The translations under genes and the position numbers were made by a program. DNA of 64,000 nt from an uncultured Aminicenantes bacterium (GTDB lineage: Bacteria; Acidobacteriota; Aminicenantia; UBA2199): NCBI GenBank assembly GCA_965195285.1, contig CBDAFS010000015.1, positions 32,001 to 96,000 on the forward strand, read 5' to 3'. A model generated the notes under the pieces. The model made no database searches and was not told the origin of the DNA. It saw only the letters and a list, made by a program, of their open reading frames with translations. Below are positions 3,492-40,536 of this stretch, piece by piece (the first letter of the stretch is position 1; every line of letters starts with the position of its first letter).

Positions 3492-6440
3492 ATGACACTT
3501 TCTAAAGATTATCAGCCTCAATTTGGTATATTTCATGATTTAATGAAATTCAGGGTGAGGGAGATCCTGTTGGTATCGAGTTATTATGATGCGTTTGTTC
3601 TGGAAGAAGACGGGAGGATATCCGAAAAGATATTCAGTGAGTATCTGGATTTAAACCTTCGTTATGTCCCCCGTATCAACCGGGTTTCAAGTGCCGAAGA
3701 AGCGCTGCTGCTATTGGAAGAAGGACATTATGACCTGGTGATTACCATGATGAGGATAGCCGATATGGATGTGATGGAATTCGGCCGCAAGATAAAGGAA
3801 ATAAACCCGGAACTCCCGGTTGTCCTCTTAACGTATGAATGGGTGGGGATTGATCTTTTTAGCCAATTGAGGACTTCAGCCAATATTGATAAAATATTTT
3901 TCTGGTCCGGGGATACCCGGATTTTGTTAGCCATCATCAAATATGTAGAAGACATCAAAAATGTCGATCAGGATATTAAGCAGGGGGTTCAGGTCATTCT
4001 TATCCTGGAGGATTCTCCCAAGTTTTATTCCATGTATCTTCCGGGCATATATACCGAGATCATGACCCAGACCCGGTTGTTAATCACCGAAGGTATCAAT
4101 GATTTACATCGATTGTTGAGAATGAGGGCCAGACCCAAAATCATTATGGCTGAAACCTATGAGCAGGGCATGAAACTCTTTCGAAAATATCGAAAGAACC
4201 TTCTTGGAATCATTTCGGATGTTGAATTTATCAGAAACGGTGAAATGGATGATACCGCGGGCTTTTTATTTGCGGAAAAAGCCAGGGGGGAAATCCATGA
4301 CCTGCCCATTTTGATCCAATCGGCCAAGTTGAAAAACAGGGAAATTGCTGTTCAAAACGAATTGGATTTCATTAATAAGAATTCCCCGCATTTATTACAG
4401 GAGTTGACCCAGTTCATTCTGAACCGGTTTGGCTTCGGTGATTTTGTTTTCAGTTATCCCGACGGCAGGGAGATTGGCCGGGCCGGTTCGCTTCATGAGT
4501 TTCAGAAGATGATCCAAATTATTCCGGCCGAAAGCCTGGAGTTTCATGCCAGCAGGAATCATATCTCCATCTGGCTGCGGGCCAGAACTGAATTTGAAAC
4601 AGCTGAAAAACTAAGGCCCAGAAAAGTATCGGATTTTACAGATATTGAAGAAGTGAGAAAATTCATTCAACGGACCATTCAAAATTTGATCATTCAGAAT
4701 CAGTCCGGTGTGATTACCGATTTCGGACCGGCCCGGTTTGATATGGACCATTCATTTGTGCGTCTGGGAAACGGTTCGATGGGTGGAAAAGCCAGGGGGA
4801 TCGCTTTCCTCAATAGCTTATTGATGGACTCACCAATCAAAAAAAACTTCGAAGAGGTAGATATCCGGACACCCCATACTTTTGTGATCTGCAGTGAAGT
4901 ATTTGAGGAATTTATCGCTGCCAATGATTTGCAGAACGTTGCCATCGGGGAAACCGACAATGACCGGATTGCTAATGCATTTATAGAAAAAAAGCTTCCG
5001 GATAGAATTGCCAGTGATCTTCGAACCTTGCTGGAAAATATCCGCTACCCTTTGGCCATTCGTTCTTCGAGTCTGCTCGAGGATTCTCAAATGCTGCCGT
5101 TTGCCGGTTTGTATTCCACCTATATGCTTCCCAATAATCATCGGGATGTCAGGGTACGGTTGGAACAGCTGTGCAAAGCCGTCAAGCTGGTATTTGCATC
5201 CGTGTTTTACAAATCTCCCAAGGAATATGTAAAAAATACAAATTTCAGAATAGAAGAAGAAAAAATGGCGGTGATTATTCAACAGGTAGTGGGCCAGGAA
5301 TTCAACCACAGGTTTTATCCGGTCATCTCCGGTGTGGCCCAGTCTTATAATTATTACCCGATTTCCAATATGGAACCGGAAGATGGGATTGTCCAGCTCG
5401 CACTGGGTCTGGGCACCACCATTGGAGAGGGCTCTCAGACCCATAAATTTTCCCCCCGGTTTCCGGAGATGAATCCACTGTTTTCAGCCCCGGTTGAATG
5501 GGTGAATAATTCTCAGAATTATTTTTATGCACTGAATCTCGCTGAACCGGATGTGGAAATAATAAAAGACGAAAAATTCAGTTTGAATAAATTGGACCTC
5601 ACCCATGCTGAAAGCGATGGGACCCTGTATTTTGTTGCCAGTACTTTTTCACCCCAGGACAATGTCATTCAGGATAACCTTACTATCAAGGGACCCCGAT
5701 TGGTGACGTTTGCCCATGTGTTGAAATACAATATTTTTCCGCTCTCGGAGATTCTGCTTGAGATCTTGAAATTGGGTCGCACCTCTTTTGGTTCTCATAT
5801 CGAATTGGAGTTTGCCATCAACCTGTTCAGGGAAAAGAAAAAGAAACCGGAATTTTTTCTGTTGCAGATAAGACCACTGGTTGGTGGGCGGGAAACCATC
5901 CAGGTATCCTGGGATCAGGATTCTCAAAAGGATATCATATGCATGTCATCCCATGCCCTGGGAAATGGGATATACGATGATTTGTATGACCTGGTTTATG
6001 TGGATCCCGATGCCTTTGATGTTTCCAAAAGCCGGGTTATAGCGGGCGAAATCGGAGAAATAAACCAGGGATTCATTGCAGAAAACCGAAAATATATTTT
6101 AATCGGCTTTGGTCGATGGGGTACCGCCGATCCCTGGCTGGGGATTCCGGTTGAATGGTATCAGATCTGCAAAGCCGGTATTGTGGTAGAATCCAACAGG
6201 GATGGTTTTATTGTAGACCCATCTCAGGGCAGTCATTTTTTTCACAATCTGGTATCTTTAAAAATTGGATATTTTCACATTAAAAAAACCAATGACCAGG
6301 AGTTCATATCCTGGGACTGGATCAAGAAACAACGCCCTTTCCGAAAAAAAAAATATATTAGACATGTTCGATTTAAAAAACCGCTTCCCGTAAAAATTGA
6401 CGGACGCCAGTCTAAAGGTATTATTTTGAAGCCCCGCTAA
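3492..6440 (+). CDS. Receiver-domain / PEP-pyruvate-binding (PPDK_N) fusion protein
   Basis: N-terminal REC-like repeats; GGKARG, PLAIRSSSLLED, FAGLYST and LLQIRP motifs; C-terminal SQGSHFFHN. Confidence 0.85.
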   Translation: MTLSKDYQPQFGIFHDLMKFRVREILLVSSYYDAFVLEEDGRISEKIFSEYLDLNLRYVPRINRVSSAEEALLLLEEGHYDLVITMMRIADMDVMEFGRKIKEINPELPVVLLTYEWVGIDLFSQLRTSANIDKIFFWSGDTRILLAIIKYVEDIKNVDQDIKQGVQVILILEDSPKFYSMYLPGIYTEIMTQTRLLITEGINDLHRLLRMRARPKIIMAETYEQGMKLFRKYRKNLLGIISDVEFIRNGEMDDTAGFLFAEKARGEIHDLPILIQSAKLKNREIAVQNELDFINKNSPHLLQELTQFILNRFGFGDFVFSYPDGREIGRAGSLHEFQKMIQIIPAESLEFHASRNHISIWLRARTEFETAEKLRPRKVSDFTDIEEVRKFIQRTIQNLIIQNQSGVITDFGPARFDMDHSFVRLGNGSMGGKARGIAFLNSLLMDSPIKKNFEEVDIRTPHTFVICSEVFEEFIAANDLQNVAIGETDNDRIANAFIEKKLPDRIASDLRTLLENIRYPLAIRSSSLLEDSQMLPFAGLYSTYMLPNNHRDVRVRLEQLCKAVKLVFASVFYKSPKEYVKNTNFRIEEEKMAVIIQQVVGQEFNHRFYPVISGVAQSYNYYPISNMEPEDGIVQLALGLGTTIGEGSQTHKFSPRFPEMNPLFSAPVEWVNNSQNYFYALNLAEPDVEIIKDEKFSLNKLDLTHAESDGTLYFVASTFSPQDNVIQDNLTIKGPRLVTFAHVLKYNIFPLSEILLEILKLGRTSFGSHIELEFAINLFREKKKKPEFFLLQIRPLVGGRETIQVSWDQDSQKDIICMSSHALGNGIYDDLYDLVYVDPDAFDVSKSRVIAGEIGEINQGFIAENRKYILIGFGRWGTADPWLGIPVEWYQICKAGIVVESNRDGFIVDPSQGSHFFHNLVSLKIGYFHIKKTNDQEFISWDWIKKQRPFRKKKYIRHVRFKKPLPVKIDGRQSKGIILKPR

Positions 6441-6609
6441 GCCTGGAATCCTTATTCCTTTTGATGACCCGGCCGGCGATAGATAAGGAATACCAGTCCC
6501 CCCAGGATACCATAACCCACTCTCATCCCCAGATCGATGAGTTCGCCGGACAGGGCAAAGGCTGGCGGAAAATTCATCAACTGTTTGAAACTGGCTGTCC
6601 GAATTCCCA
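6403..6609 (+). repeat. 207-bp direct repeat, copy A (other copy 8062-8268)
   Basis: GACGCCAGTCTAAAGG...TGTCCGAAT(T/C)CCCA; ungapped, about 5 mismatches; spans the 3' ends of two convergent genes. Confidence 0.95.
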
Positions 6610-6756
6610 ATAAATTTATTTTAAACGGAGTGATAATGCTTTTTCCGACTGCAGGTGTTCGGTGGACCTGAGTAGTAATTTGACTTTTTTAGTGATATCT
6701 ATAAAATAAATATTGAGAGGAGATCTGATTTTTATTAGATGATTAGGAGGAGAAGC

Positions 6757-7974
6757 ATGAAGAGATTTTTATTTTTTGTCATAATACCCATTTTGATTTT
6801 ACCAGTAATGACCTGTAACGAGGTGGTGGAGGAAATTATTGAAGAAATAACCTCCATGTCCTTTACCACACCCAATAAAATTTATGATGGCAATCTTCCG
6901 GCGGAGGGGGATAATACCAGTTATTTATTGGATCCAGCCATGGAGGTGAGTACGGATGGCGAGATTTATCTGATCTGGAATAATTGGATAAATGATGATG
7001 AAGATCGTATTTCCTTTGGATGGTCCGGTGATAGGGGGGATACCTGGAGTGAATCAAAAAGGATATCCAGTGGTTACAAGGCCTCCATTTCCCTGTCAAA
7101 TTCAGGAAATGTTAATGTTGTTTATCCTCGGTGCTGCCCCTGGGATTTATTTCATATCAGCTCATCGGACAATGGTACTACATGGCGATCACCGGTCCAG
7201 ATAACCAACTCCAGTTTCCTCACTCCCTCCCTGGATCCAAAAATTTGTATTGATAATTCTGGTAATATGAATGTGGCTTGGAATAAAGGGAATCAGCAAG
7301 ATGTATGGGAAGTGTATTTCAGCCACTCCTCTGATAGTGGCTTTAACTGGTCAGTGTCAATAGGGATATCAAATAAGCCCAACTATCATTCAAATGATTC
7401 CTCCATCACCTGTTTGGCAAGTGGAAGCATTTATTTGGTATGGCAGCAGAATCTTCCCCAAAACGCCATGCAGGTATTTTTCAGTCAATCGGATGATTAT
7501 GGGGTCACCTGGACAATACCCAAAGATGTATCGCCGGGGGACAATCATTCTGAACACCCCTTTATTACCTGTGATGGTTCATCCACCATCTACCTGACCT
7601 GGTCCAATAATTACCATTATACGGAAAAACTAAATGTATTTTTATCATTCTCTACTGATAATGGTGCAACCTGGAGAACTCCAGTCAATGTATCCAATAC
7701 TGCCAATGCTGATTCCAAATATCCGGTAATGGCTATTGATAATAAGGGATATATTTATATCGCCTGGATGGAGAAGGTGAGTGGCAACTGGGAGATATAT
7801 TTTAAGCATTCTCCGGATGGGGGAGAGAATTGGAGTGATCCGGTTAATATATCCAGTAATTCGGGTGATTCCTGTGTGCCGGTAGTGGGAGTGGATGGTG
7901 ATGGAACAGTATACCTGGTCTGGGATGATGATACCTCCGGCAAAAATGCCATTTACTTTGCTAGGAGTTTTTAA
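6757..7974 (+). CDS. BNR/Asp-box (sialidase-like beta-propeller) lipoprotein
   Basis: Six SxDxGxxW Asp-box repeats; signal peptide with lipobox-like VMTC; AGGAGG RBS. Confidence 0.85.
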   Translation: MKRFLFFVIIPILILPVMTCNEVVEEIIEEITSMSFTTPNKIYDGNLPAEGDNTSYLLDPAMEVSTDGEIYLIWNNWINDDEDRISFGWSGDRGDTWSESKRISSGYKASISLSNSGNVNVVYPRCCPWDLFHISSSDNGTTWRSPVQITNSSFLTPSLDPKICIDNSGNMNVAWNKGNQQDVWEVYFSHSSDSGFNWSVSIGISNKPNYHSNDSSITCLASGSIYLVWQQNLPQNAMQVFFSQSDDYGVTWTIPKDVSPGDNHSEHPFITCDGSSTIYLTWSNNYHYTEKLNVFLSFSTDNGATWRTPVNVSNTANADSKYPVMAIDNKGYIYIAWMEKVSGNWEIYFKHSPDGGENWSDPVNISSNSGDSCVPVVGVDGDGTVYLVWDDDTSGKNAIYFARSF

Positions 7975-8061
7975 TTGATAATGGTATTTATTTGAATACT
8001 TTTATTAAATAGAACACTGATAATTGATTCTATTTAATTCTAAAGTGAGGAGAGAATTACA

Positions 8062-8268
8062 GACGCCAGTCTAAAGGTATTATTTTGAAGCCCCGCTAAG
8101 CCTGGAATCCTTATTTTTTTTGATGATCCGGCCGGCGATAGATAAGGAATACCAGTCCCCCCAGGATACCATAACCCACTCTCATCCCCAGATCGATGAG
8201 TTCGCCGGACAGGGCAAAGGCTGGCGGAAAATTCATCAACTGTTTGAAACTGACTGTCCGAATCCCCA
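8062..8268 (+). repeat. 207-bp direct repeat, copy B
   Basis: Matches 6403-6609 at an offset of 1659 bp. Confidence 0.95.
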
Positions 8269-9094
8269 GTCCATTTATGGCCGGTACGGTCATGAGCAGA
8301 ACGATCATTACCGGTACTTTGATCATGAAATCAATGGTATCCGGATTCTGGCCCAGAGCCCGGGCAATCAGGTAATAGTATATGATCATATTCAATTGAA
8401 ATATAATGCTGATCAACAGCGCAGACATGAGCTCAAAAGGCCGGTGAAAGTAAATGGATAGGGCTTGGTAAGATTCGTTTAATAAATGACCGACTTTTTT
8501 CGGTAATATTTTATTCAAAAAATTAAGAACTTTGGGGGCAATACCGGGATGAGCCAACATCATTCCAACCGCTCCCATTAAAATCAGGACAGCGAATAAA
8601 AACCAGATTCCTGTATTTTCATTGTCTCCCCTTAGGGTTTTGATGATTAAAGCGGTCAGGGCGATTAAAATCAGGGCTGCCAATCCGGTTATCCTTTCCA
8701 TTATGACAACCATTAAAGAGGTGGTGGTTTTCCCGGTCAGTTTTTTGCTTTCAATGACTCGGAGGGTATCGCCTCCGATTGTGGATGGTAAAAAAGTATT
8801 GAAAAAAGCTGCCATAAAATAGTAAAGAAAGAGTTGGCCGAAGTTGGCCTGGACATCCTGGGCTCTTAACATGAATTTCCATCTCAGGCTAATCAGGCCG
8901 AATCCTACCAGGTGGAGCAGACTGGCCGGAATAAGGTACTTGAGCGAAGCAGAAGAAAAGGCCTCAAAGATCTTTTTAAAAGCATCGGTGAGGCCACCCT
9001 GTTGATTGGAGAGCATGAGCAGAAAGTATCCGATCAGTATGGTGCTGACCACTATCCTGAGAAATAAAAGTATTGTCTTTTTTTTCATGTTCAT
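8111..9094 (-). CDS. Lysylphosphatidylglycerol-synthase TM / UPF0104 flippase-like membrane protein
   Basis: RW..L, FFNTFLPSTIGGD, ERITGL and P..NGLG motifs; multiple TM helices. Confidence 0.85.
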   Translation of the reverse strand: MNMKKKTILLFLRIVVSTILIGYFLLMLSNQQGGLTDAFKKIFEAFSSASLKYLIPASLLHLVGFGLISLRWKFMLRAQDVQANFGQLFLYYFMAAFFNTFLPSTIGGDTLRVIESKKLTGKTTTSLMVVIMERITGLAALILIALTALIIKTLRGDNENTGIWFLFAVLILMGAVGMMLAHPGIAPKVLNFLNKILPKKVGHLLNESYQALSIYFHRPFELMSALLISIIFQLNMIIYYYLIARALGQNPDTIDFMIKVPVMIVLLMTVPAINGLGIRTVSFKQLMNFPPAFALSGELIDLGMRVGYGILGGLVFLIYRRPDHQKK

Positions 9095-11792: not shown

Positions 11793-14700
11793 ATGGATAA
11801 GGCGAAGAAGATGAGAGTTGTTTTTACCGGAGGTGGCACCGGGGGCCATGTCTATCCGAATATTGCCATTTATGATGTCATAAAGGAGAGATACCCAGAG
11901 GCCTCTTTTTTGTATATCGGGACCAGAAAGGGGGCAGAGGAGAGAATCGTTTCCAATCTTCCCCAGCCTATAGAATTTGTCAGTATCGTGTCCAGGGGGA
12001 TTCCCCAGAAAATAAGGAGTTTTAAAACCATAATGGCCCTGCTGGTTATGTTTTTTGGATTTGTAAAAAGTTTTTTTGCACTCAGAAAATTTAAGCCGGA
12101 TGTCGTTATCGGCAGTGGTGGTTATGTGTCAGCCCCGGTTCTGTTTGCCTCGGCGTTTCTACGCTTAAAGATTTTTATTCATGAACAGAATGCGGTTCCC
12201 GGAAGACTAAATCGCTATATATCCAAGTTCGCACACAAAATAGGGGTCAGTTTTGCCTCTACCGCCAGTTTTTTTCCAAGGAAAAAAGTTGCCATTACCG
12301 GATATCCGCTCAGAAAGTCAATCCTGAAGAAAAAAGATGTGAATGTAAAAGAAAAATACGGTATTCCATCAGACAATCGTGTCCTGTTTATCTGCAGCGG
12401 AAGTAGCGGTGCCCGGACCATCAACAATGCCATTGCGGAAATTCTTCCGGATTTGTTGACCATCGATGATCTCACCATTATTATTTCAACCGGAAGGGGG
12501 TACACCAGAGAATACAGGGCTTTTGACGATACGGTTGCCATTCTCCAAAGAATTGGGGTTCAGCCTGATATTGAAGGGAAACTGATTATCCGGGAATATT
12601 TTGACAATATTGATGAAATTTATTCCATTTCGGATTTAATTGTTTCCCGAGCCGGTGCAGGTACCATCAAGGAAATTACCACACTGGGAATTCCTTCGAT
12701 TTTAATTCCAAAGATCGATCTTCCCGGGGATCACCAGATCTTAAATGCCATTGAAGTGCAGAAGATGGGGGGAGCTGAGATTGTATATGAAGAAGTCGAT
12801 CTGCGAAATAATCAGAAAACCATATATGTTCCGGAGAAAATACTTTTAGATACCATTCGGAAACTATTATTTGATAACCGGTTCTTTTCCCTGATGAAGA
12901 AGAATTTAGATAAGATTGATAAGCGGAATAGCGCCGAACTCATCCTGGCTGAGATTGAGTTGATCCTGGAAATTAAGCAATCGGTTGAGGAAAAACAGAT
13001 CAAGATTTTTTATCTGCAGTCTGAAGAAAGTGATAAGAGCTATGAATTGATTTTTGATTCCACAACCCTGGGGAATTCCTTCCTTTGTGATGTTTATCTG
13101 GGAGAGATCAAGTCCAATGTGATCTTCCGGATCAAAAATATCAACAATGATGAAAAGTTGATCCTTAAAAGGGTGAAGGGAAGGATTACATTGAATGGGG
13201 AGGAAGTGGGAGACTGGACTGAAATTGTAGAGAATGACTGTCTGGAAATTGCCGGTCATGTTTATGTTTTAAAACGTTATCTGGAAAAATTGGAACAGTT
13301 TCATTTTGAAAAAACCACTTCTTCTAAAATTTTGGGATCCTCTTTTGGCATTATGATCTCCCGGATTGGCGGATTTTTCAGGGAGATCGTTTTTGCCGCT
13401 ACTTTCGGAGCCGGGAAAACCATGAGTATTTTTGCGGTCGGATTAACCATTTCAAATTTTTTGAGGCGGGTGGTTGCCGAGAATGCCCTCGAGAATGCCT
13501 ATCTTCCCATATTTTTAAGAATTTTTCACCGGAGCGCGCGAAAAAAAACCTGGAAGGCTGCTTCATCCATTGTCAATGTCACTCTTCTGCTCTCCGTTAC
13601 CTTTACCCTGCTGGGTATTTTACTGGTCCCGCTGTTGATTAAATTTCTGTTTCCTGCATTCGTGGCCAGGGGAATGATTAATGAAACCATCAACATGACC
13701 CGACTGATGTTCCCTTATCTTTTTCTGGTGACAGTGGCATCGGTGATGACCACCTACTTGAAGGCCTTCAACCGTTTTGGTATTGCCGAGTCTTCGGCTC
13801 TGTTTTTTTCCGTCGGTACTATCACCGGAGTGGTTATCCTGCATTCATTCACCGGGATTTATTCTCTGGCTTACGGTGTTTTACTCGGCGGGGTTTTACA
13901 AATATTATTTGCCTTGCCATTTACCGTTAAAATACTTTCACAAAAGGCCTTGCAGTTTCATTATTCTCCCTCCATTCAATTTGCCAGCCCTGAGAATAAA
14001 AAATATTATTCACAACTGGGACCCATATTCATTGATGTCATCCTGTCAAATTCCTCTGAAATTGTTGCGCAGATACTGGCTGCCGGATTGAAAACAGGGG
14101 CCATTGCTTTTTTATATTTTGCCAAGACGATTTTCAGGTTGCCTTTTGCCATAATCTCACAGGCGATCAACAGTGTGATTTTAAGGGAGTTTTCGGATAA
14201 AATTGCCCTGTTCGATAAAGAGAAGGCCAGAAAATTATTCATCGATGGACTGAAAACCAATTTATTCCTACTCACTCCTATATCGATTTCTATGATTATT
14301 CTGGCAGAACCGATTGTTTCATTGATCCTGGGTCGCGGTGAGTTCAACCAGTCGGATATACTTCATACTGCATATGCACTCCAATTTTATTCGATCGGGT
14401 TGATCGGGTGGGGGATTCATTCGTTTACAGTCAGAATATTCTCGGCCAGGATGGATATTAAGACTTCCATGATATTGAATTTTTTCATGCTGACCACTAA
14501 TATTACACTATGCCTTCTACTGGTCAGGACAAGCTTGACTTTTGCCGGGTTGGCCCTGGCCACTTCACTTTCATATTTGATCTTTTCGGTTATCCGGGTG
14601 CTGGTATTGAAATACAAGCTGGAAAGAGAAGATATTCGAATCGCCTACCGGGAAATATTAATATCTTTTTTCAAAACCCTCCTGGCCTCATGTTTCATGG

Positions 14701-15578
14701 TGGTCATCATGCTGGAAACCAAATTAATATTTAAGAAAATTCCTTTCGGATCCAAAACCTTTGAAAACATTATAATGCTGGTATCCTTGCTGTTTATCGG
14801 AACTGCGGTATATTTCCTTTCATCTCTGTTACTTAAAAATACCGAAATTCTCATTTTAAGAAAAACCCTGATGAAAGGAGATAGAAATATACCGATTTCC
14901 ATGCTGTCACCTTTTGAGTTTTTAAACCGGGCCGCTCGATTTCCTGAAAAATTCAGGGATGATTACCTTTACAAGATCAATATTTTCATCTCCAGTGAAA
15001 AATGGGAGATCAGAAATGTGGGGGTTAAACTGGTAGGCATTTTTCAGGATAGAACCAAAATTGATTTTTTATTAAATTTGATAAAATCAACTTCTGCCAA
15101 TGGTTTCATCAAACGAAACGCACTGATGGCCTTGATCCAGCTGGATTTCTGGGATGCCAAACAAAAAGATTTAATGAAAAGCCTTTTAAATGACAGCTAT
15201 TTTGAAGTTAGAGCCGCCACAATTGAATACCTCTACAACAAGCTGCCTGACCAGGACTATGATGAATTCAAGGGTATGATTCATAAGAAATTGAAAAGAT
15301 CATCTCTGGAGGAAAAAATCGCCTCTTTGAAGCTCATTGGGAAACTCGGTTCAAAAGATGAACTCGCTTTACTGAAGCATTTCTACCTGAGCAGCAATTC
15401 CATCCTGAGAGAGGAATTGCTGGAAATGATTTTAAGATTTTACCGGAGGAAGCTGCTTTCTGTTGATGAAGTCAAAGAGCAGATTGATAAAATACTGAAA
15501 ACCTCCAATAACTTCAGTCCTGAGTTTAAGCTGAAGGCAATAATAAACAAGGTTTTTAAGGAGCTAGGAGAAACATGA
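11793..15578 (+). CDS. murG-murJ: MurG - FHA-like - MurJ - HEAT-repeat fusion protein
   Basis: MurG: GGGTGGH, HEQN..PG, SRAGAGT..E, HQ..NA. FHA-like segment ...LNGEEV...NDCLEIAG. MurJ: SRIGGFFRE, NFLRRVVAE, RLPFAII, GLALATS. C-terminal helical repeats (DSYFEVRAAT). One continuous ORF. Confidence 0.9.
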   Translation: MDKAKKMRVVFTGGGTGGHVYPNIAIYDVIKERYPEASFLYIGTRKGAEERIVSNLPQPIEFVSIVSRGIPQKIRSFKTIMALLVMFFGFVKSFFALRKFKPDVVIGSGGYVSAPVLFASAFLRLKIFIHEQNAVPGRLNRYISKFAHKIGVSFASTASFFPRKKVAITGYPLRKSILKKKDVNVKEKYGIPSDNRVLFICSGSSGARTINNAIAEILPDLLTIDDLTIIISTGRGYTREYRAFDDTVAILQRIGVQPDIEGKLIIREYFDNIDEIYSISDLIVSRAGAGTIKEITTLGIPSILIPKIDLPGDHQILNAIEVQKMGGAEIVYEEVDLRNNQKTIYVPEKILLDTIRKLLFDNRFFSLMKKNLDKIDKRNSAELILAEIELILEIKQSVEEKQIKIFYLQSEESDKSYELIFDSTTLGNSFLCDVYLGEIKSNVIFRIKNINNDEKLILKRVKGRITLNGEEVGDWTEIVENDCLEIAGHVYVLKRYLEKLEQFHFEKTTSSKILGSSFGIMISRIGGFFREIVFAATFGAGKTMSIFAVGLTISNFLRRVVAENALENAYLPIFLRIFHRSARKKTWKAASSIVNVTLLLSVTFTLLGILLVPLLIKFLFPAFVARGMINETINMTRLMFPYLFLVTVASVMTTYLKAFNRFGIAESSALFFSVGTITGVVILHSFTGIYSLAYGVLLGGVLQILFALPFTVKILSQKALQFHYSPSIQFASPENKKYYSQLGPIFIDVILSNSSEIVAQILAAGLKTGAIAFLYFAKTIFRLPFAIISQAINSVILREFSDKIALFDKEKARKLFIDGLKTNLFLLTPISISMIILAEPIVSLILGRGEFNQSDILHTAYALQFYSIGLIGWGIHSFTVRIFSARMDIKTSMILNFFMLTTNITLCLLLVRTSLTFAGLALATSLSYLIFSVIRVLVLKYKLEREDIRIAYREILISFFKTLLASCFMVVIMLETKLIFKKIPFGSKTFENIIMLVSLLFIGTAVYFLSSLLLKNTEILILRKTLMKGDRNIPISMLSPFEFLNRAARFPEKFRDDYLYKINIFISSEKWEIRNVGVKLVGIFQDRTKIDFLLNLIKSTSANGFIKRNALMALIQLDFWDAKQKDLMKSLLNDSYFEVRAATIEYLYNKLPDQDYDEFKGMIHKKLKRSSLEEKIASLKLIGKLGSKDELALLKHFYLSSNSILREELLEMILRFYRRKLLSVDEVKEQIDKILKTSNNFSPEFKLKAIINKVFKELGET

Positions 15579-16675
15579 TTGTCTGGTTAATGGAGTTTAT
15601 GGAATTTATTCCGGAATCGATTCAGCGGCTCTTTTCTTATGTTAGTTTTAGAGCATTGATGGCCATGTTAACTGCTTTTTTGTTCGGGGTTTTTGTGGGG
15701 AAAAGACTGATTAACATTATTTATCAGCTTAATTTCCGGGATGTATCCAGGAGTTATGGGAATTTGTCCCCGAAAAACAAAACAGGAACTCCCACCATGG
15801 GCGGGATCATCATTTTTTTATCTTTCCTGATTGCGGTGTTGATTTGGTCAAAGCCGGATAATTTTTTTATTTCAATTATTCTACTGGCCGCTTTCTGGTT
15901 TACCACTCTGGGTTTTTTTGATGATTATTTAAAAAATGTGAAAGGCACCAGTGATGCGGGTATGAGCCGGGGATTGAAGCTCTTTTTTCAGGCATTGTTC
16001 GGACTAATCCTGGGACTCCTGGTTTTATCAAACAACTCACCCATCGGCCAGGAAATAGCAACGAAACTGTTCATTCCCTTTATTAAAAATCCAGTTATCG
16101 ATCTTTCTTTTTTTTATTATATTTTTATTATACTGGTGATCATCGGAATTTCCAATTCGATTAATTTTGCCGATGGCCTAGATGGGCTGGCCGCAGTACC
16201 GGTTTCCCTGCTGGCTTTTGTGTATGCCGTATTTGCCTATATATTAGGCAATTCAAAACTGGCTGAATATTTACTCTTTCCCTATATAAACGGGGCCGAG
16301 GAACTGGTGATTGCACTGGCTGCCCTGGCAGGTGCCATGATCGGTTTTCTGTGGTTTAATACCTATCCGGCCGAGATATTTATGGGAGATACCGGTTCTC
16401 TGTTTTTGGGTGGAATTATTGCTACTACGGCGATATTGTTAAAAAAAGAAATACTATTTCTGGTTGCAGGCGGACTCTTTGTGATTGAATTCCTATCTGT
16501 TTTTATTCAGGACTATATTGGTATCAAATGGTTCAAAAGAAGGATTTTTTACCGGGCCCCGATTCACCATACCTATCAATTTTTGGGAATTGCTGAACCT
16601 AAAATTGTGGTTCGATTCTGGATTATAGCCGGGATTTTTACCCTGGTCAGTTTAATCAGCTTGAAGTTACGGTAA
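15575..16675 (+). CDS. mraY: Phospho-N-acetylmuramoyl-pentapeptide transferase
   Basis: KTGTPTMGG, GFFDDY, NFADGLDGL, FMGDTGS and APIHH motifs; ATGA overlap with the upstream fusion gene. Confidence 0.96.
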   Translation: MIVWLMEFMEFIPESIQRLFSYVSFRALMAMLTAFLFGVFVGKRLINIIYQLNFRDVSRSYGNLSPKNKTGTPTMGGIIIFLSFLIAVLIWSKPDNFFISIILLAAFWFTTLGFFDDYLKNVKGTSDAGMSRGLKLFFQALFGLILGLLVLSNNSPIGQEIATKLFIPFIKNPVIDLSFFYYIFIILVIIGISNSINFADGLDGLAAVPVSLLAFVYAVFAYILGNSKLAEYLLFPYINGAEELVIALAALAGAMIGFLWFNTYPAEIFMGDTGSLFLGGIIATTAILLKKEILFLVAGGLFVIEFLSVFIQDYIGIKWFKRRIFYRAPIHHTYQFLGIAEPKIVVRFWIIAGIFTLVSLISLKLR

Positions 16676-17385
16676 TGAAGGATATCAAAGACATTCTTGT
16701 TTTTCTGAGCCTTTCTCTTAAGATTTTTCTGAGTTTGGTGTTTTTCAATTTATTGTATTTGCTCATATCTATCATGATTATTGTTGGTCTCTTTTTTGTA
16801 TCTCCTGCACCAATGAGCCATTCGGGGTCTCTATTGTTGTTATTGATATCCATCATCGCTTTCCATATCGCTTTTAAAAACATTTTTTTGTTTAAATATC
16901 AGTGGTTGCTCAATTTCAGGTTTATAGATTTTTTAGGTAACAATCCATCATTGAACCCGCCGATATCGATGGACTATGACCGTGGGTTGAAACTTCCCAT
17001 TGAAGAGATAAAAAGTCAATATAAAGCCGTCAAATCTGGTTTAAAACCAAGAGGGCTGGCATTATTCTCAAAAATGTTTGTTATTTCCATGATAATGACC
17101 CTGATTTTAACTGAGCACCCATTCAACTGGAATCGGGGTATTACCGAAAATTTAAAAAAAAGCGTATTGAAGCTATACTTGTTGAATTTGCTGATTTTTT
17201 TCATGATATTGGTTACGTTTACCCTGATTTCATTTTTACTTACTATTGGAATTCATTTGGAATTGAAATGTCTGGTTTTTTTTATCGGATTTTTGTTTGC
17301 TTATTTTTTGCATGCTGCCCTGTTCGATCCCATTGTTTCACTCATGATTCAGAAGCAAACTTATTTGTCGGTTTCACAGAGTTGA
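16675..17385 (+). CDS. Hypothetical membrane protein (about 4 TM)
   Basis: Hydrophobic helices at both ends; TAATG overlap with mraY. Confidence 0.7.
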   Translation: MKDIKDILVFLSLSLKIFLSLVFFNLLYLLISIMIIVGLFFVSPAPMSHSGSLLLLLISIIAFHIAFKNIFLFKYQWLLNFRFIDFLGNNPSLNPPISMDYDRGLKLPIEEIKSQYKAVKSGLKPRGLALFSKMFVISMIMTLILTEHPFNWNRGITENLKKSVLKLYLLNLLIFFMILVTFTLISFLLTIGIHLELKCLVFFIGFLFAYFLHAALFDPIVSLMIQKQTYLSVSQS

Positions 17386-17799: not shown

Positions 17800-17964
17800 T
17801 TCCTCGGGACTGTAATGATAGTGATAGTCGACCGGAATCGGAGTGTCTTTATCCTCTGATTGGTTATTATATATACCTGAATTTATATCAAAAAGACTCG
17901 TTTATGGCATTTTTTTTCAAAAAGGAAATAGTGTATAATATTTGGTATATTGGAAGAGATAGAA

Positions 17965-18684
17965 ATGAGATTGTTTTCCGCTTTTCAGGAATTGTTCAAT
18001 CTGGTTCGGGTCTCGGTCTATCAACCCAGGTGTATATGCTGTCAGGACTTACTGGTATTCAAAGAGGAGCAGCATATCTGTGGGTCATGCCGTTCTCAAA
18101 TTCAACCCTTTTTTTTTCCGGTCTGCCGTCTTTGCGGAAAATCTATCAACGAAAATGGGGAGATCTGCGGAGAGTGCTCGATAAATCCCCCTCCCTTTCG
18201 GAAACATGCTTCCTATACACGGTATGAAGGGGTTATTAAAGAGCTGATTATTTATTATAAGTTCAAGGGCATACAGGGATTAAAAGTTCTTTTTGAGAAT
18301 CTTCTGGCTGAACTGTTCAACAGCCAAATCACCGGGCATTTCGACTGGATGGTTCCGGTACCGGCTGACAGGGGGAGGAAGCGGGAACTGAATCCCATTC
18401 TGGCTCTCTGTAAAAGGTTATCCAGGAGTGTGGACATTCCTTTAATGCGGAAAAATCTAATCAAGGTTAAAAGGACCGAACCCCAGGTCCTGTTGAGTCA
18501 GGCCAGGCGTTTGAAAAATCTGGACGGGGCTTTTCAACTAAAAGATCCAGCCGCAGTCAAAAAAAAGAGAATATTGCTGGTGGATGATGTGTATACCACC
18601 GGTACCACCATAAAAAAGTGTACTCAGTTGCTTAAAAAGGCCGGAGCCGACGTAGTGGCCATTACCCTGGCCCGATCAATATAA
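17965..18684 (+). CDS. comF: ComF family protein (double zinc ribbon + PRTase)
   Basis: Four CxxC pairs, VPVP, LLVDDVYTTGTT. Confidence 0.92.
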   Translation: MRLFSAFQELFNLVRVSVYQPRCICCQDLLVFKEEQHICGSCRSQIQPFFFPVCRLCGKSINENGEICGECSINPPPFRKHASYTRYEGVIKELIIYYKFKGIQGLKVLFENLLAELFNSQITGHFDWMVPVPADRGRKRELNPILALCKRLSRSVDIPLMRKNLIKVKRTEPQVLLSQARRLKNLDGAFQLKDPAAVKKKRILLVDDVYTTGTTIKKCTQLLKKAGADVVAITLARSI

Positions 18685-18787
18685 ATATTTCAATTAGACC
18701 ACTAACTCTTTCGGGTGTTGCGTTGGTTATATAAAGTTTATCCTGACTGTTAAGATTTGTGTCAGTATGTGAATTTAATATTATTTT

Positions 18788-19156
18788 TTATCTGGTGCAG
18801 CTCCAGGTACCAGTCCAACCCGAATCTTCAATAAATGTGCCATTCATGGAGTTGTTGGTTGGAGCTGACCCAATATAATTTGATGAATTGCCGTTGTCCC
18901 AGACAACATTGAAATTTACCGTTGTTCCTGTTACCGTATATGTACCGATTCCACCCCAGCCATCCACTGCAGTGCCTGCAGTTGCTGATCCTGAAAATGT
19001 GATTGTGGTAACATATATGTCCATATCAGAATAAGTAAGGGTTAAACTCCAAAGTCCGACAATGTTAAAAACTTCTTCTTCAGCGGTTTTACAAGCAGGC
19101 ATAAATATTAAAGCAATACAAACTAAAAATAATAACAACAAAGAAAACTTTTTCAT
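18788..19156 (-). CDS. Small beta-rich lipoprotein
   Basis: Signal peptide with lipobox MPAC; GGAGG RBS; G-x-W beta motifs. Confidence 0.75.
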   Translation of the reverse strand: MKKFSLLLLFLVCIALIFMPACKTAEEEVFNIVGLWSLTLTYSDMDIYVTTITFSGSATAGTAVDGWGGIGTYTVTGTTVNFNVVWDNGNSSNYIGSAPTNNSMNGTFIEDSGWTGTWSCTR

Positions 19157-19259
19157 TGTTCCTCCTTTTTTTTTATATTATATAATTGAAAATATAAAAT
19201 CAATAAAAAACTTCAATAGCTTTATTTATGAAAAGAGCGATTATAACATACAAAAGTGA

Positions 19260-19350
19260 TTTTTGACTGATAGATCCTGTTGCAGTCAAAAAAAAGAGAA
19301 TAGTGGTGGCCATTACCCTGGCCCGATCGGTGTAGATCGGGCGGGGTAAG
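19260..19350 (+). repeat. comF-3'-derived direct repeat with two hairpins (left of RAYT)
   Basis: Matches 20363-20449 (87 bp, 1 mismatch) and comF 18531-18573 plus 18652-18677. Confidence 0.9.
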
Positions 19351-19365
19351 AGTATATATGACAAT

Positions 19366-20357: not shown

Positions 20358-20362
20358 TTTTA

Positions 20363-20449
20363 TGACTGATAGATCCTGTTGCAGTCAAAAAAAAGAGAAT
20401 AGTGGTGGCCATTACCCTGGCCCGATCGGTGTAGACCGGGCGGGGTAAG
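20363..20449 (+). repeat. comF-3'-derived direct repeat (right of RAYT)
   Basis: TGACTGATAGATCC...GGGCGGGGTAAG, matching 19264-19350. Confidence 0.9.
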
Positions 20450-20504
20450 GACCTATAGAGAAGGAGGAGGTTGATTATTAATCGATAAGATGGCTTTCAT
20501 TATT

Positions 20505-21400: not shown

Positions 21401-21561
21401 GCCGGATGAGTTGAGGAGAGGGTGTGGTATCCTGTTGATATTAATCGATAAATAGAGTTTGATTAATTGATTCAATCCAGGTATAATTTTTTTGACTTGA
21501 ATTGAATTCAAATTCAAAGCATTATGTCCCAAAAAAATTAACCGAAAAAGGACAACAAGAC

Positions 21562-30290: not shown

Positions 30291-30374
30291 AGTAAGTAGT
30301 AGGAAGTAAGTAGTAGGTAGTAGGAAGTAAGTAGTAGGTAGTAGGAAGTAGGAAGTAGGAAGTAGGTAGTGGAT
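30291..30374 (+). repeat. Heptamer tandem repeat AGTA(A/G)G(T/A) x 11-12
   Basis: Units AGTAAGT, AGTAGGA and AGTAGGT start 12 nt after the tRNA. Confidence 0.92.
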
Positions 30375-30526
30375 TAATTTCTCATAAAAGTCTCGTATAA
30401 TTCTCACGGATTTTTCCCAAATTTTATTAATAATATTCGAACAATATCTTCATGAACGGATTTTTGGTGATATTTAATTGAAAATGCAAGATTATGATGT
30501 AAATCTGGGTATCAGTTTTCATTTTT

Positions 30527-32215: not shown

Positions 32216-32310
32216 AAAAGGGGGGTGACGAAAAGGGGGTGACGCTAAAGGGGGTGACGGTGCTTGTAAACTTGTATTTATCTCACCTCAGCTTTTCAAC
32301 CGCACTTTTC
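32216..32310 (-). mobile_element. Relic right end of a RAYT element with triplicated terminus
   Basis: GGGGTGACGGTGCTTGTAAACTTGTATTTATCTCA..AGCTTTTCAACCG matches the reverse complement of 20303-20355, including the last codons (KVRLKS-stop vs KIRLKS-stop). Confidence 0.85.
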
Positions 32311-37141: not shown

Positions 37142-38659
37142 ATGATTCGAAAGCAAATCTGTTATCTTTGTCTATTTTTTGTTTTTTCATCTACGTTGAT
37201 ATTCGCCAAGAGTAATGTCAAGTTAAAGCTCCCGGTTAGAATTTTTGTTGAAACCAGCCAGGTAAAAGAATTTGATAAAGAGAAATTCACACTATTTATA
37301 AATAATAAAAAAATCAAAATATTTAATATTTTAACAAAAAATAAATCCATTAGTAAAAAATCCGATATGGGGAGGAATTTCATACTCTCCTTTCAAACAA
37401 CCGAATATGATCAACAAGTATCTACTGGTATTTTTCACTTTATTACCCAAATTTTAGATACAACAGACCGTTTAATAATATTGACTCCTCTGAAAATTCA
37501 TAAGATGGAGGTTTCCAGAAATAAGATCAGCATGTTGGTAAAAATTGAGAAATTATTAAGAAATGATTTTCTTACCTGTAAACAATTAAAATTTTCTGTA
37601 GAGGAAGCTTTAAAAAATAAAATAATCAAATTGAAAAGAAGTTTGATCGATTCATACAAAAATATCTTTAATTTTAGTCAAAGTAATAAAGATGCCATCC
37701 AATTTCTAAACACTTATCCGAAAGAATTCCAGAATTTCAAGAATGAATTTTTGGTGCCTAACTACAGAATTATCAAGTTGATCACAGAGTTAATGGCCAC
37801 AAGTGGTGGAGAGAGGTGGTGGATACACTTTCAACACCGAGATATCTCTCCACTATTTTCCATGACAAAAGTCATCATTAACATGATTAAGGATTATGAA
37901 TCTCTACATTATAACAAATTGAATATTGATCAAAGTATTGCTCAGCTTAAAAAACAGTTACAATTTTCCAGTTCTTTTCCACAATATCAGTTTTCAAAAG
38001 AACTCATAAATAACCATATTAATTATAATGTTATTATGATGGGGAAACCAATAGATTGTGAATTACGTTCCTCCGTTGCTGAGTTTTTGGATCTCGAAAA
38101 AATCTTCAAAAATCTAACCCTTTATACTGGCGGTATGATGGTCTGTACAACAGATGTGATTGACGGATTAAAAAATATTTCCAGACATACGGATTATTAC
38201 TATGAGCTGGTTTATAATTTTAATGGGCAATTTGAGAGGAAAAATATTCGAGTCGGTATACCGGATCAGAAAAAGAGTTTATATTACAGGAAATCATTCA
38301 GCAGAGATGAGATGGAATCATTAATTACTTTCCTTACCACACAAAAAATTCATATTGAAAAATTTTCCTTCCATGAAAAATATTTCAATTTTTTAGTTAC
38401 AAAATTCAAATTAGATGAAACTGGAAATTTTGGAATTTTAAAAATATTTGTTCGTGTGTTGGATTATCAAAAAAATGTGGTTTACAAAGAGGAAAAAATT
38501 CTCAGGACATTCAAGGATAAAGTTTCAATATCTCTTCCTCATCCCTCTTTGAAAACAGGAACTTATGAACTCATATTATCTGTATACGATTTGATTGCAA
38601 ACCATTATGCATCTCTACAGCATAATTTTTATTTTACTGAAAAATATGAATCCGAGTGA
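37142..38659 (+). CDS. Secreted hypothetical protein (VWA-related architecture, Ig-like C-terminus)
   Basis: Signal peptide; TGG...YYELVY; very AT-rich; C-terminus resembles that of 63590-64000. Confidence 0.65.
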   Translation: MIRKQICYLCLFFVFSSTLIFAKSNVKLKLPVRIFVETSQVKEFDKEKFTLFINNKKIKIFNILTKNKSISKKSDMGRNFILSFQTTEYDQQVSTGIFHFITQILDTTDRLIILTPLKIHKMEVSRNKISMLVKIEKLLRNDFLTCKQLKFSVEEALKNKIIKLKRSLIDSYKNIFNFSQSNKDAIQFLNTYPKEFQNFKNEFLVPNYRIIKLITELMATSGGERWWIHFQHRDISPLFSMTKVIINMIKDYESLHYNKLNIDQSIAQLKKQLQFSSSFPQYQFSKELINNHINYNVIMMGKPIDCELRSSVAEFLDLEKIFKNLTLYTGGMMVCTTDVIDGLKNISRHTDYYYELVYNFNGQFERKNIRVGIPDQKKSLYYRKSFSRDEMESLITFLTTQKIHIEKFSFHEKYFNFLVTKFKLDETGNFGILKIFVRVLDYQKNVVYKEEKILRTFKDKVSISLPHPSLKTGTYELILSVYDLIANHYASLQHNFYFTEKYESE

Positions 38660-38660
38660 C
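38486..38660 (+). repeat. Direct repeat (3' end of 37142 gene), copy A
   Basis: AAAGAGGAAAAAATTCTCAGGACATTC...GAGTGAC, matching 39705-39864 with small indels. Confidence 0.92.
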
Positions 38661-38702
38661 TAACATTGATGATGTGTAATCGTTCCAAAAGGGAGGTATA
38701 AT

Positions 38703-39149
38703 ATGAAAGGAACCAGGGTGTATGCTTTAATGACAGTATTTTTTGTTCTTGCCATGACAGGGTCCGGTGGGGCAGGACCTGTAAAAAAAGATTTTATCAA
38801 TACGCTGGGCATGAAATTTGTGTACATTCCCGCGGGAAATTTTGTAATGGGAGCAGTCGAGATTATTGAGGATGACAATACCCCCACCCATAAAGTAACT
38901 ATCAGTAAAGGATTCTACCTGGGTATTCAGGAGGTAAACGCAGATCAATGGTATGCGGTGATGAAGAAGTATCCCGATGACAGTCGGGGTAAACTGCCGG
39001 TGGCCAATGTCTCCTGGCAGGATGTTCAGGCCTTTATCAATAAACTCAATGAGTTGGAAAAAACAACAAAATACCGGCTGCCCACCGAGGCCGAGTGGGA
39101 ATATGCTGCCCCTGCCGTAACCATTTTTTATGGTTTCATCCATAATTGA
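38703..39149 (+). pseudogene. Truncated FGE-sulfatase (SUMF1/EgtB/PvdO) domain protein
   Basis: GMKFV.IPAG.F.MG, PV.NVSW and YRLPTEAEWEYAA, then ends abruptly; the C-terminal half (N..EW, RGGSW) is missing. Confidence 0.8.
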
Positions 39150-39179: not shown

Positions 39180-39701
39180 ATGAAAAATCCAAATGACATT
39201 ATTGCAGTAATCGGTACCAATAAAGGTACTATTAAAATTAAACTTTTTTGGGAAGAAACACCAGTAACTTCTGGAAGTTTTGTGAATTTGATTCAACGAG
39301 GTTATTATAATGGGTTGATCTTTCACAGAGTTATTCCTGACTTCATGGTTCAGGGTGGTTGTCCTGATGGAATGGGAACAGGTGGACCGGGATATAATTT
39401 TGAAGATGAGTTTGTTTCAGAACTCAGACACGACAGCCCTGGAGTCTTGTCAATGGCAAATGCCGGTCCCGGTACAAACGGAAGTCAATTTTTTATTACT
39501 CATCTAAAAACCCCATGGTTAGATGATCATCATACTGTTTTTGGGAAAGTCCTTTCAGAAGATGACCAGACTGTAATAGACTCAATTGAAGGAAATGACA
39601 AAATTGAATCAATCCGTATTGAAGGTGATCCAGCAAAAATATTGAAAAAAATTGAAAATAGATTAACAGAATGGAATAAAATACTAGATAAAAAAGTTTA
39701 A
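39180..39701 (+). CDS. Cyclophilin-type peptidyl-prolyl isomerase
   Basis: [40 protein letters not shown]. Confidence 0.96.
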
Positions 39702-39704
39702 AAT

Positions 39705-39864
39705 AAAGAGGAAAAAATTCTCAGGACATTCAAAGATAAAGTTTCAATATCTCTTCCACTTTGAAAACAAGTACTTATGAACTCATACTATCTGTATACG
39801 ATTTGATTGCAAACCATTATGCATCTCTACAGCACTTTTTTTATATTCATGAAAAATGAGTGAC
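39705..39864 (+). repeat. Direct repeat copy B (decayed 3' end of 37142 gene)
   Basis: Matches 38486-38660; begins 3 nt after the cyclophilin stop. Confidence 0.92.
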
Positions 39865-39900
39865 ATAAAATAAAAATCAAAAAACAAAATAGATTTTGTA

Positions 39901-40536
39901 TTAATACTTAATCCCTCGGGCCACCACAAAAGAACCCCTGCCGTAACCATTTTTTACCGGCTCGATCTGGCATATCTCATCAAGGGGATTGAATAATGTT
40001 TGAACAAATAAAATATCTTCAAAAGAGGCATTGCCCAGTAATTCCGTGAGTTCTTCGGGAGAATAAAAAGTTGCCTGCTTGAAGAATATACTTACCTCTT
40101 TTTCCTGCTGGTATTTCATACCCAGGGGACTGAGTCTGTCAATAAATCCAATGACCAGATGCCCTCCGGCGGTCAGAATTCGATTGGCCTCTTTTAAACT
40201 ACTTTTTATATCATTTAAAAAACAAATGGTGGTAACCATCAGCACCAGATTAAAGGATTCATTGCGGAAAGGCAGTGTTTCGGCCACACCCTGGATAACA
40301 TGAATATCCCTGGCTCTGGCCAGTTTCAGCATGTTTTTGCTCGGATCAACCCCGGTTTTGATATTGAAGGAGCTGGAAAAACGGCCGGTTCCTACCCCGA
40401 TCTCCACAGCATTTGCACGTCGCGGCAGTAGCCGCTCCACAGCAAATACCTCGCTCTGATAAACCCAGTGGTATTTCTCATACCACCGGTCGTATTTTTC
40501 AGCAAAATTATTGAAAGGCTCGATTGCTTGACTCAT
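39901..40536 (-). CDS. Class I SAM-dependent methyltransferase
   Basis: EIGVGTGRF, GVDPS, GVAETLPF. Confidence 0.92.
   Translation of the reverse strand: MSQAIEPFNNFAEKYDRWYEKYHWVYQSEVFAVERLLPRRANAVEIGVGTGRFSSSFNIKTGVDPSKNMLKLARARDIHVIQGVAETLPFRNESFNLVLMVTTICFLNDIKSSLKEANRILTAGGHLVIGFIDRLSPLGMKYQQEKEVSIFFKQATFYSPEELTELLGNASFEDILFVQTLFNPLDEICQIEPVKNGYGRGSFVVARGIKY

Follow-up and report, generated by a model that had tools for sequence, protein, structure and literature searches.

For the Rhs C-terminal tip arrays, a "C-terminal displacement" has been proposed in which circular intermediates take part in homologous recombination; the circle model has two steps and deals with core fragments that vary in length (Jackson et al. 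2009, PMC2935791). Here, we describe a related arrangement in a 64,000-nt stretch (the window: positions 32,001 to 96,000, forward strand, of contig CBDAFS010000015.1, assembly GCA_965195285.1) of the core chromosome of an uncultured Aminicenantes (Acidobacteriota) bacterium, in which cassettes of accessory genes stand between direct repeats that copy the ends of neighboring genes. We tentatively attribute these cassettes to insertion–duplication by the host recombination machinery, with no recombinase encoded by the element. As in the Rhs tip arrays, to the extent that the source sets them out, the array lies downstream of an intact gene and its units start with a variable-length fragment of the conserved part; there is no integrase, the former 3′ end is displaced downstream, where it decays, and a circle with a single crossover has been proposed. 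Unlike in Rhs, the displaced pieces in the window are the same ordinary 3′ end and not alternative toxin tips, the cargo consists of unrelated accessory genes, and there are three unrelated addresses, two of them spanning convergent gene pairs, with repeats far shorter than Rhs core fragments.

The H47 genomic island of E. coli has no recombinase gene and carries extensive imperfect direct repeats on both sides (Azpiroz et al. 2011, PMC3191183; 2017, PMC5426353). Like the cassettes, it is a small recombinase-free island; other strains hold empty sites with one hybrid copy, and excision proceeds via several identity segments (PMC3191183, PMC5426353). Unlike them, it measures 13 kb and its mobility has been shown experimentally, independently of RecA, and its repeats are, as far as these sources describe them, not copies of neighboring gene ends (PMC3191183, PMC5426353). 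An earlier reading of the window, made from the sequence alone, had suggested an undescribed mobility system. This was too strong: a like logic was proposed for the Rhs tip arrays (PMC2935791) and an integrase-free E. coli island is known (PMC3191183), as far as these sources describe them, so that the cassettes do not form a new category. Our literature search turned up no description of the architecture in Aminicenantes, which is weak evidence of its being unpublished.

Tandem accretion of cis-mobilizable elements (CIMEs), in the form outlined by Guedon et al. (2017, PMC5704250), involves short attachment (att) sites with one fixed core and units derived from integrase-bearing elements. In the window, unlike in this outline, boundaries vary within a site, repeats reach ~270 nt, and there is neither an integrase nor a vestige of one. 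Composite islands resembling the staphylococcal cassette chromosome mec, found at the rlmH end, are grouped with CIMEs and tandem accretion at gene 3′ ends. When non-replicating circles are integrated in the laboratory by the Campbell-type route, a gene remains whole only when the cloned fragment extends to its end. The resulting topology (target fragment, insert, target fragment) is identical to that of the cassettes; unlike for the laboratory constructs, no natural source of circles joining cargo to a target fragment is known here.

Copied gene ends at three loci

Overall, 0.6–2.8 kb of accessory genes lie between direct repeats of 22–228 nt, ~80–98% identical, at three loci of the window, and the repeats are copies of neighboring-gene ends at all three. 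This recurrent architecture was found, give or take a few bases, where the sequence-only reading had placed it. Repeats were located by a direct-repeat search and pairwise alignment, and chance was modeled with 30 first-order Markov simulations of the window, in which direct repeats at 300–5000 nt spacing were counted. Repeats of at least 40 nt occurred in 0/30 simulations, against five pairs in the window (two of the five being paralogous aminotransferases), and repeats of at least 30 nt in 1/30; the three-locus pattern is real and beyond chance. Relatives were sampled as 78 loci (~1.2 Mb) from species-representative genomes, retrieved with the MurG-MurJ alignment and cited below by number (L002, L003 and so on).

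No tyrosine or serine recombinase is encoded in the window, in agreement with the earlier reading: among 58 distinct open reading frames (ORFs; 43 plus 15 more) scanned with Pfam, none matches Phage_integrase, Recombinase or Resolvase. There is no vestige of one in or near the cassettes either, whose non-coding remainder amounts to 30–175 nt only. The cargo had been described as mostly exported; a signal-like hydrophobic N-terminus is seen in four of six cargo proteins, as judged by eye.

Locus 1 lies between two convergent genes, here named A and B.

3492–6440, + strand: host gene A, a response-regulator receiver and PPDK_N domain protein of 982 aa, intact (Pfam; alignment with the L003 orthologue extends to residue 981 of 982)
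6400–6629: left repeat, with the functional A 3′ end, an 11-nt spacer and a B 3′-end fossil
6630–8058, + strand: cassette with a BNR/sialidase-like lipoprotein gene (ORF 6739–7974; Pfam BNR_2)
8059–8288: right repeat, with an A 3′-end fossil, the spacer and the functional B 3′ end
8111–9094, − strand: host gene B, an LPG_synthase_TM/flippase-like protein of 327 aa, intact (Pfam, NCBIfam, synteny)

The repeat, ~228 nt, holds the last 38 nt of A, the 11-nt spacer and the last 168 nt of B. Its copies (6400–6619, or up to 6629, and 8059–8278, or up to 8288) are identical at 217 of 225 aligned bases and are separated by 1.43 kb with a single gene, whose BNR protein is the sole member of its own 90% cluster (best other match, 40% identical), against eight members in the MurG-MurJ cluster. 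Mismatches are C/T, G/A and T/C and go in both directions. The B fossil differs from functional B by four non-synonymous and three synonymous codon differences, and a dN/dS comparison on so few sites says nothing. In L003, both the BNR cargo and the repeat are missing and A and B stand tail to tail, ~10 nt apart; this is an empty locus 1 site.

Locus 2 is an array in which the 3′ end of a comF-like gene is present four times (c1–c4), separating three cassettes. Signed positions below are relative to the ComF stop.

17950–18684, + strand: ComF-family phosphoribosyltransferase, host gene (Pfam, NCBIfam)
18531–18676: c1, the functional ComF part (−154 to −8) that is repeated in c2 (native ComF 3′-end copy 18531–18684)
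18677–19259, − strand: cassette 1, with a gene for a 122-aa lipoprotein (18788–19156, − strand; no Pfam family) and its flanks
19260–19350: c2, ComF fossil (−154 to +16) with an internal deletion, an in-frame TGA and two hairpins
19351–20358, + strand: cassette 2, with a Y1/HUH gene resembling REP-associated tyrosine transposases (RAYT-like; 19416–20318; Pfam Y1_Tnp)
20359–20510: c3, second copy of the c2 fossil (20359–20449) and a diverged copy of the conserved ComF-purF spacer
20505–21351, − strand: cassette 3, with a DUF4382 lipoprotein gene (20505–21176, − strand; Pfam) and its upstream flank
21352–21473: c4, ancestral ComF terminus (−49 to stop; repeat 21352–21400) and the original conserved downstream spacer
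21502–22965, + strand: purF-like amidophosphoribosyltransferase, host gene (NCBIfam, synteny)

The fossils c2 and c3 are 98% identical and have both the internal deletion and the in-frame TGA in common, whereas the repeats of the 122-aa cassette (c1 and c2) are ~80% identical, with their longest shared identity runs now at 21–23 nt. One 23-nt stretch is identical in c1–c3 and matches at 20/23 positions in c4 and in L003, and c2 and c3 are identical on both sides of it. Homology at the ComF site ends at −8, +16 and ~+110. The sequence-only reading had taken the host genes to be intact, and A and B are indeed whole; ComF differs in that its last 8 nt, including the stop, are cassette-derived (GATC/AATATAA, the slash marking the junction), which makes its final Ile a junction product. 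The resulting ending, ARSI, is also that of the 96% identical database ComF and is absent from the ones at 92% and 88%.

A relative provides the uninterrupted counterpart of this array. L002 ends 78 nt behind ComF, and 70/74 nt there match the sequence after c4, not that after functional ComF. Since ComF in L002 is directly followed by the post-c4 sequence, c4 and its spacer represent the ancestral ComF terminus, which has been displaced from the gene by ~2.7 kb. Empty sites in relatives, which had been put forward as a check, therefore exist for locus 1 (L003) and for locus 2 (L002). A diverged copy of the same spacer follows c3 (the downstream similarity score of c3 versus c4 was reached by 0/500 shuffles) and extends ~110 nt past the stop, so that the DUF4382 cassette would have entered at ~+110, duplicating −49 to +110. 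The repeats do copy gene 3′ ends, as had been proposed; this one exceeds the gene by that ~110 nt.

From these copies, the history of locus 2 can be tentatively reconstructed. The DUF4382 and the 122-aa lipoprotein cassettes would have come first, the latter inserted at −8 with duplication of −154 to −8 (147 nt); then the fossil would have lost ~70 nt between two GTGG motifs and gained its TGA; last, the Y1 unit would have entered the fossil at +16 with a 91-nt duplication. None of the three duplications was needed for a whole ComF, which marks them as a by-product of the mechanism and not of selection. That the younger-looking BNR cargo has better repeats (96%) than the 122-aa cargo (~80%) is as expected if an initially identical redundant copy decays. 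ComF homologues were also used to ask whether the fossils are foreign alleles, and gave no information: the Val ending of the fossils is that of most family members and would be expected of an old local copy as much as of a foreign one. The family of the 122-aa lipoprotein is small, with 127 representative clusters (E ≤ 0.001, among 1.84 billion), its own representative being 90% identical.

The ComF-purF-like spacer (window 21401–21500; L002 9777–9854) is an observation in its own right. Between L002 and the window, it is conserved at 70/74 nt, above the ComF coding end (113/152), which points to a regulatory element ahead of the purF-like gene; Rfam gave no match to this spacer.

Locus 3 again lies between convergent genes.

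37142–38659, + strand: host gene X, 505 aa, no Pfam family, signal-like N-terminus
38471–38664: left repeat, functional X 3′ end
38703–39149, + strand: truncated FGE-sulfatase gene, profile positions 4–122 of 255 (Pfam)
39180–39701, + strand: cyclophilin-type peptidyl-prolyl isomerase, cargo (Pfam)
39690–39865: right repeat, X 3′-end fossil with a 7-nt deletion
39901–40536, − strand: class I S-adenosylmethionine (SAM) methyltransferase, host gene (Pfam)

The last 175 nt of X (38471–38645) recur 1.2 kb downstream at 39690–39857, ~89% identical with a 7-nt indel, and a 22-nt piece of the methyltransferase 3′ end (39935–39956) is repeated at 39112–39133 (blastn), where it ends the truncated FGE-sulfatase gene. 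The duplication thus measures ~270 nt and spans both convergent gene ends. Gene X is specific to Aminicenantes, its nearest Atlas clusters being Aminicenantota hypothetical proteins, and no relatives of locus 3 were found among the 78 fetched loci.

With one further case in L003, described below, we reconstruct six insertion–duplication events (five in the window), with duplications of 74, 91, 147, ~160, ~228 and ~270 nt; the length of the target fragment varies within arrays as well as between them. Three known classes were tried and rejected. Transposon target-site duplication does not fit duplications of 74 to ~270 nt with variable ends, a difference that the earlier reading had already noted, and the cassettes of loci 1 and 3 have no terminal inverted repeats; defined ends and a transposase-like gene are found in the Y1 unit alone. 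For a diversity-generating retroelement, a reverse transcriptase domain would be expected in the Pfam scans of the 58 ORFs, where there is none, and the mismatches are not adenine-specific. An integron cassette array, or a cluster of attC sites lacking integron integrases (CALIN), is at odds with the absence of an integrase and with repeats that are gene-end copies, and the joints of loci 1 and 3 as well as c1 and c4 fold no better than shuffles.

The ComF address and other gene ends in relatives

L003 (~70% protein identity) is syntenic with the window from LexA to the CDP-alcohol transferase and has a ComF-end event of its own: a 74-nt repeat (73/74 identical) flanks a gene for a 144-aa lipoprotein, with the junction at −2, inside the stop codon (GTAT/GA versus GTATAAG in the fossil). 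Its cargo resembles the 122-aa protein of the window (32% identity, E 7e-11, same orientation). Other members of the family reach 47% identity to the window protein, so the two cargoes are not simply orthologues. The non-coding flanks of the two cassettes are unalignable (169 and 192 of 300 shuffles scored at least as high as the real pair). Different joints, different repeat extents and similarity at the family level only indicate two independent events at one ComF address, and the site was thus hit independently in another species. A single ancient event inherited by both was rejected on the same grounds: junctions at −8 versus −2, repeats of 147 versus 74 nt, unalignable flanks and cargo at 32%. 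Between the 241-aa gene and ComF, L003 also has an ORF (476 aa, 15569–16999) that matches no known family, at a position where the window has only ~560 nt; no repeats flank it, and not every gene-content difference therefore carries duplications.

L003 bears on the possibility that the repeats are an assembly artefact, in which strain variants or a separate circle were stitched in via shared sequence. In its favor, the sequence comes from a metagenome-assembled genome, and there are close strains (the MurG-MurJ 90% cluster has eight members). The copies are, however, set apart by substitutions and indels, by an internal deletion that is shared, and by a stop codon; no identical run exceeds 125 nt; and the joints of cargo flanks with mid-gene positions must exist in real DNA for an assembler to use them. 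As the architecture also occurs in an independent assembly of another species, we regard an artefact as very improbable.

The wider occurrence of such repeats was surveyed over 1.27 Mb (the 78 loci and the window), taking pairs of at least 24 nt and at least 80% identity, 300–5000 nt apart (90 pairs), and asking which of them overlap the end of an ORF outside the pair. Outside the window, 13 touch a 3′ end and 4 touch a 5′ end (controls). Two of the 13 are true analogues (the L003 ComF case and an M29 peptidase in L031) and two are paralogous genes (L012, L013); the remainder comprises seven short 6–7-mer tandem arrays (two in L020, one in L022, three in L024, one in L035) and two short and unclear cases (L010, L077). 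These loci were chosen around a conserved cell-wall cluster, and the count of analogues is no fair genome-wide rate.

L031 1507–4893 holds two stacked islets at the 3′ end of the M29 peptidase gene. A 65-nt, 92% identical 3′-end repeat flanks a DUF454 gene, and it also flanks the start and the C-terminal box (...LGHKSSKTTKIYTHV...) of a tyrosine recombinase whose middle is deleted; 2.6 kb to the left, the start of the recombinase gene is present once more, followed by three additional accessory genes. The class Aminicenantia therefore does contain classical integrase islets undergoing decay in situ, which look superficially similar to the cassettes.

This islet keeps a different account in play, in which the cassettes would be decayed or trans-mobilized site-specific elements, as in CIME-like accretion: integration at att sites in gene 3′ ends, with the integrase lost or located elsewhere, and arrays built by repeated integration into the regenerated att site. 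The 23-nt stretch common to all ComF copies could be read as an att core, one cargo family appears at the ComF site in two species, and a three-step accretion model and a definition of CIMEs are available, as presented in PMC5704250. Even so, we think it unlikely that the window cassettes arose in this way. No recombinase is found in the 58 ORFs and the cassettes are too compact to house a vestige; the ComF junctions lie up to ~120 nt apart; loci 1 and 3 duplicate parts of both convergent genes, beyond what an element would need; and three unrelated addresses would demand three specificities. The c2 and c3 copies are near-identical on both sides of any core, including their shared deletion, unlike the product of att recombination between independent elements. 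The fossil around the Y1 element is confined to this locus, and its two copies match at 98% to either side of any possible core; this requires copying or homology and not an att core.

Possible host recombination of circles and its rivals

We return to insertion–duplication by host recombination, which we favor with reservations. A small circular DNA would carry one or two accessory genes together with a 70–270 nt piece of the chromosomal target, and would recombine once with that target in a Campbell-type single crossover. After the crossover, the cargo would stand between two copies of the target, the first of them intact, with the original downstream DNA behind the second. Events would persist only where both neighbors are spared, the redundant copy would decay to a fossil, and repeated hits at one address would build an array. 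Crossing over between the repeat copies would set the circle free and leave an empty site again, in which case the repeat would be an address that travels with the cargo.

Several observations are consistent with this scheme. Both repeat copies are collinear with the uninterrupted site of relatives (L003 for locus 1, L002 for locus 2), with the distal copy contiguous with the ancestral downstream DNA. Insertion points at ComF vary (−8, +16 and ~+110 in the window, −2 in L003). The lack of a recombinase in the 58 ORFs, duplications that ComF did not need, the near-identity of c2 and c3, one small lipoprotein family at ComF in two species with different junctions, better-kept repeats around the younger-looking cargo and the precedent of the Rhs tip arrays all point the same way. 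The events at ComF would need only one illegitimate joint, the closure of the circle, since the other junction is where the likeness of donor and recipient stops, in the last ComF codons or in the spacer. Integration of target-bearing circles by single crossover had been suggested in the sequence-only reading, and it is the only reading considered here that fits all six events; we hold to it provisionally.

Other points weigh against it. We only infer the circle, its single crossover and excision, the formation of a first circle and transfer between cells. A circle for locus 1 could form only through two illegitimate joints, in A and in B, so that a separate founding mechanism is still required. 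The c1/c2 identity runs of 21–23 nt would be marginal for RecA if the copies were already so divergent at the time. A family of site-specific elements would account just as well for the association of cargo family and site, and the similar 65-nt 3′-end repeat of L031 is accompanied by a truncated tyrosine recombinase. A general route of gene acquisition, as had been supposed, is also not established, since only 2 of the 13 3′-end pairs are true analogues in the 78 loci, one of them with that decayed recombinase.

Locus 1 is best explained by another mechanism, a one-step duplication during repair or replication, since both of its joints lie inside genes and a single step would suffice. In such an event, a broken or stalled 3′ end would copy a foreign or ectopic template and re-enter 70–270 nt back (template switching), or foreign DNA would be joined between staggered, filled-in ends. 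Variable duplication lengths fit this account, as do 12 extra nt found outside the left inverted repeat of the Y1 element; the short A/T-rich overlaps at several joints could be microhomology, which is not measurable without donor sequences. In the first 37 nt of c2, three of seven substitutions, all on one arm, turn an imperfect stem into a perfect 10-bp one, as templated quasi-palindrome correction gives. On the other hand, one-step duplication offers no reason for a lipoprotein family to land twice at the ComF end, and apart from a Y1 remnant no second cargo copy that could have served as template was found in the window or in the 78 loci. As an explanation of the cassettes in general, it appears doubtful.

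The Y1 gene of locus 2 deserves separate consideration, as a role for the local HUH enzyme had been proposed. It scores 43.4 bits with Pfam Y1_Tnp (cut-off 23) and 69.1 bits with NCBIfam REP_Tyr_transpos (below the cut-off of 80), and the element has imperfect terminal inverted repeats of 36 nt at 19363–19398 and 20325–20360. It may be compared with a REPtron, a RAYT gene between REP sequences whose palindrome has many dispersed copies in the genome; its terminal 20-mer has three matches in 64 kb, two being the element's own ends. A remnant of it is found elsewhere in the window.

32247–32309, − strand: second, truncated copy of the Y1 right end (63 nt), after three GGGGGTGACG units

The remnant and the GGGGGTGACG units lie in the PadR-DUF72 spacer (window 32220–32309).

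In a Y1/HUH (RAYT-like) mechanism, the enzyme would nick single-stranded DNA at hairpin feet and release the cassettes as circles. The 91-nt repeat around the Y1 element folds as two strong hairpins (z −6.2 and −3.8) whose feet are the repeat ends, whereas the native ComF end (c1) and c4 have no such fold and do not exceed shuffles; the remnant at 32247–32309 also makes the element multicopy. The c2 hairpins could reflect a Y1 substrate or templated palindrome correction. The stem-completing substitutions in the ComF fossil (19260–19350 and 20359–20449) also create its TGA. At the joints of loci 1 and 3, there are no hairpins (z −1.4 to +1.1), and the Y1 enzyme is therefore not a general explanation. 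L003 presents the architecture with no Y1 gene in 23.7 kb, and neither a match to the Y1 terminal motif nor a tblastn match to the Y1 protein was found in the 78 loci. As the youngest event of locus 2, the Y1 insertion cannot have made the older ones from that position. The Y1 gene is one of the cargoes, with inverted repeats of its own, and its mobilizing the cassettes seems highly improbable.

A broader scenario, built on host recombination, would have Aminicenantes carry a recombinase-free cassette system. Address-bearing circles would leave by recombination between repeats and enter naive genomes by single crossover; conserved gene ends, such as the ComF terminus, would receive, as shared docking sites, lipoprotein genes and other accessory genes from a pool; and the first circles would form by nicking or template switching at hairpins, possibly with Y1/HUH enzymes. 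We consider this extended scenario improbable as a whole.

Surroundings of the cassettes and significance

The Pfam matches of the window are mostly to ordinary housekeeping proteins (LexA, DinB, MraY-like, ComF, purF-like, PhoH, YbeY, LptD, Dxs, an RND efflux pump and others). G+C content is ~41% across the window, with dips at 19–22 kb and 37–40 kb. Promoter and terminator scans gave counts not above shuffles, and a tRNA was the sole Rfam match. At 11793–15578, one 1261-aa protein combines MurG, MurJ and a HEAT-repeat tail; more than 100 database proteins, from Aminicenantes wherever named, carry this fusion at full length, with identities of 79, 79, 72, 69% and lower.

Other repeats of the window are unrelated to the cassettes. 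Tandem class I/II aminotransferase paralogues at 41070–43579 (DNA ~75% identical) represent an ordinary gene duplication and account for repeat families D2, D8, D10 and D11; a heptamer array behind a tRNA is the other long repeat family. Arrays of 6–7-nt tandem units (AGTAGGA, GTGACAA, TTTCACT and similar) lie directly behind stop codons or a tRNA-Pro gene, and one unit type recurs in several spacers of a single genome.

Window 30291–30377: 6–7-nt tandem array
L020 17898–21821: 6–7-nt tandem arrays
L022 18795–22464: 6–7-nt tandem arrays
L024 17799–22810: 6–7-nt tandem arrays
L035 17789–18774: 6–7-nt tandem arrays
L040 18803–22228: 6–7-nt tandem arrays

Just upstream of MurG-MurJ, ispD has direct repeats of 70–180 nt on both sides in four relatives (four copies in L039).

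L033 5281–6327, − strand: ispD with flanking repeats
L039 8422–9894, − strand: ispD with flanking repeats
L053 8381–9562, − strand: ispD with flanking repeats
L060 8709–9850, + strand: ispD with flanking repeats

In L012 (16232–18665), a 969-nt stretch occurs twice, 99.9% identical and 1.3 kb apart, within two adjacent ORFs of unknown family.

If the cassettes are decayed integrase islets, the finding is an ordinary one. If host recombination of circles is the correct account, recombination by the host alone would place new genes at conserved gene ends, with an address tag left behind, and such additions would be missed by island finders that rely on integrases. The fossil copies would form a dated stack of past gene ends, from which the order of acquisition may be read from sequence alone. 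It would be a route of gene gain operating in a phylum that is known only from metagenomes.

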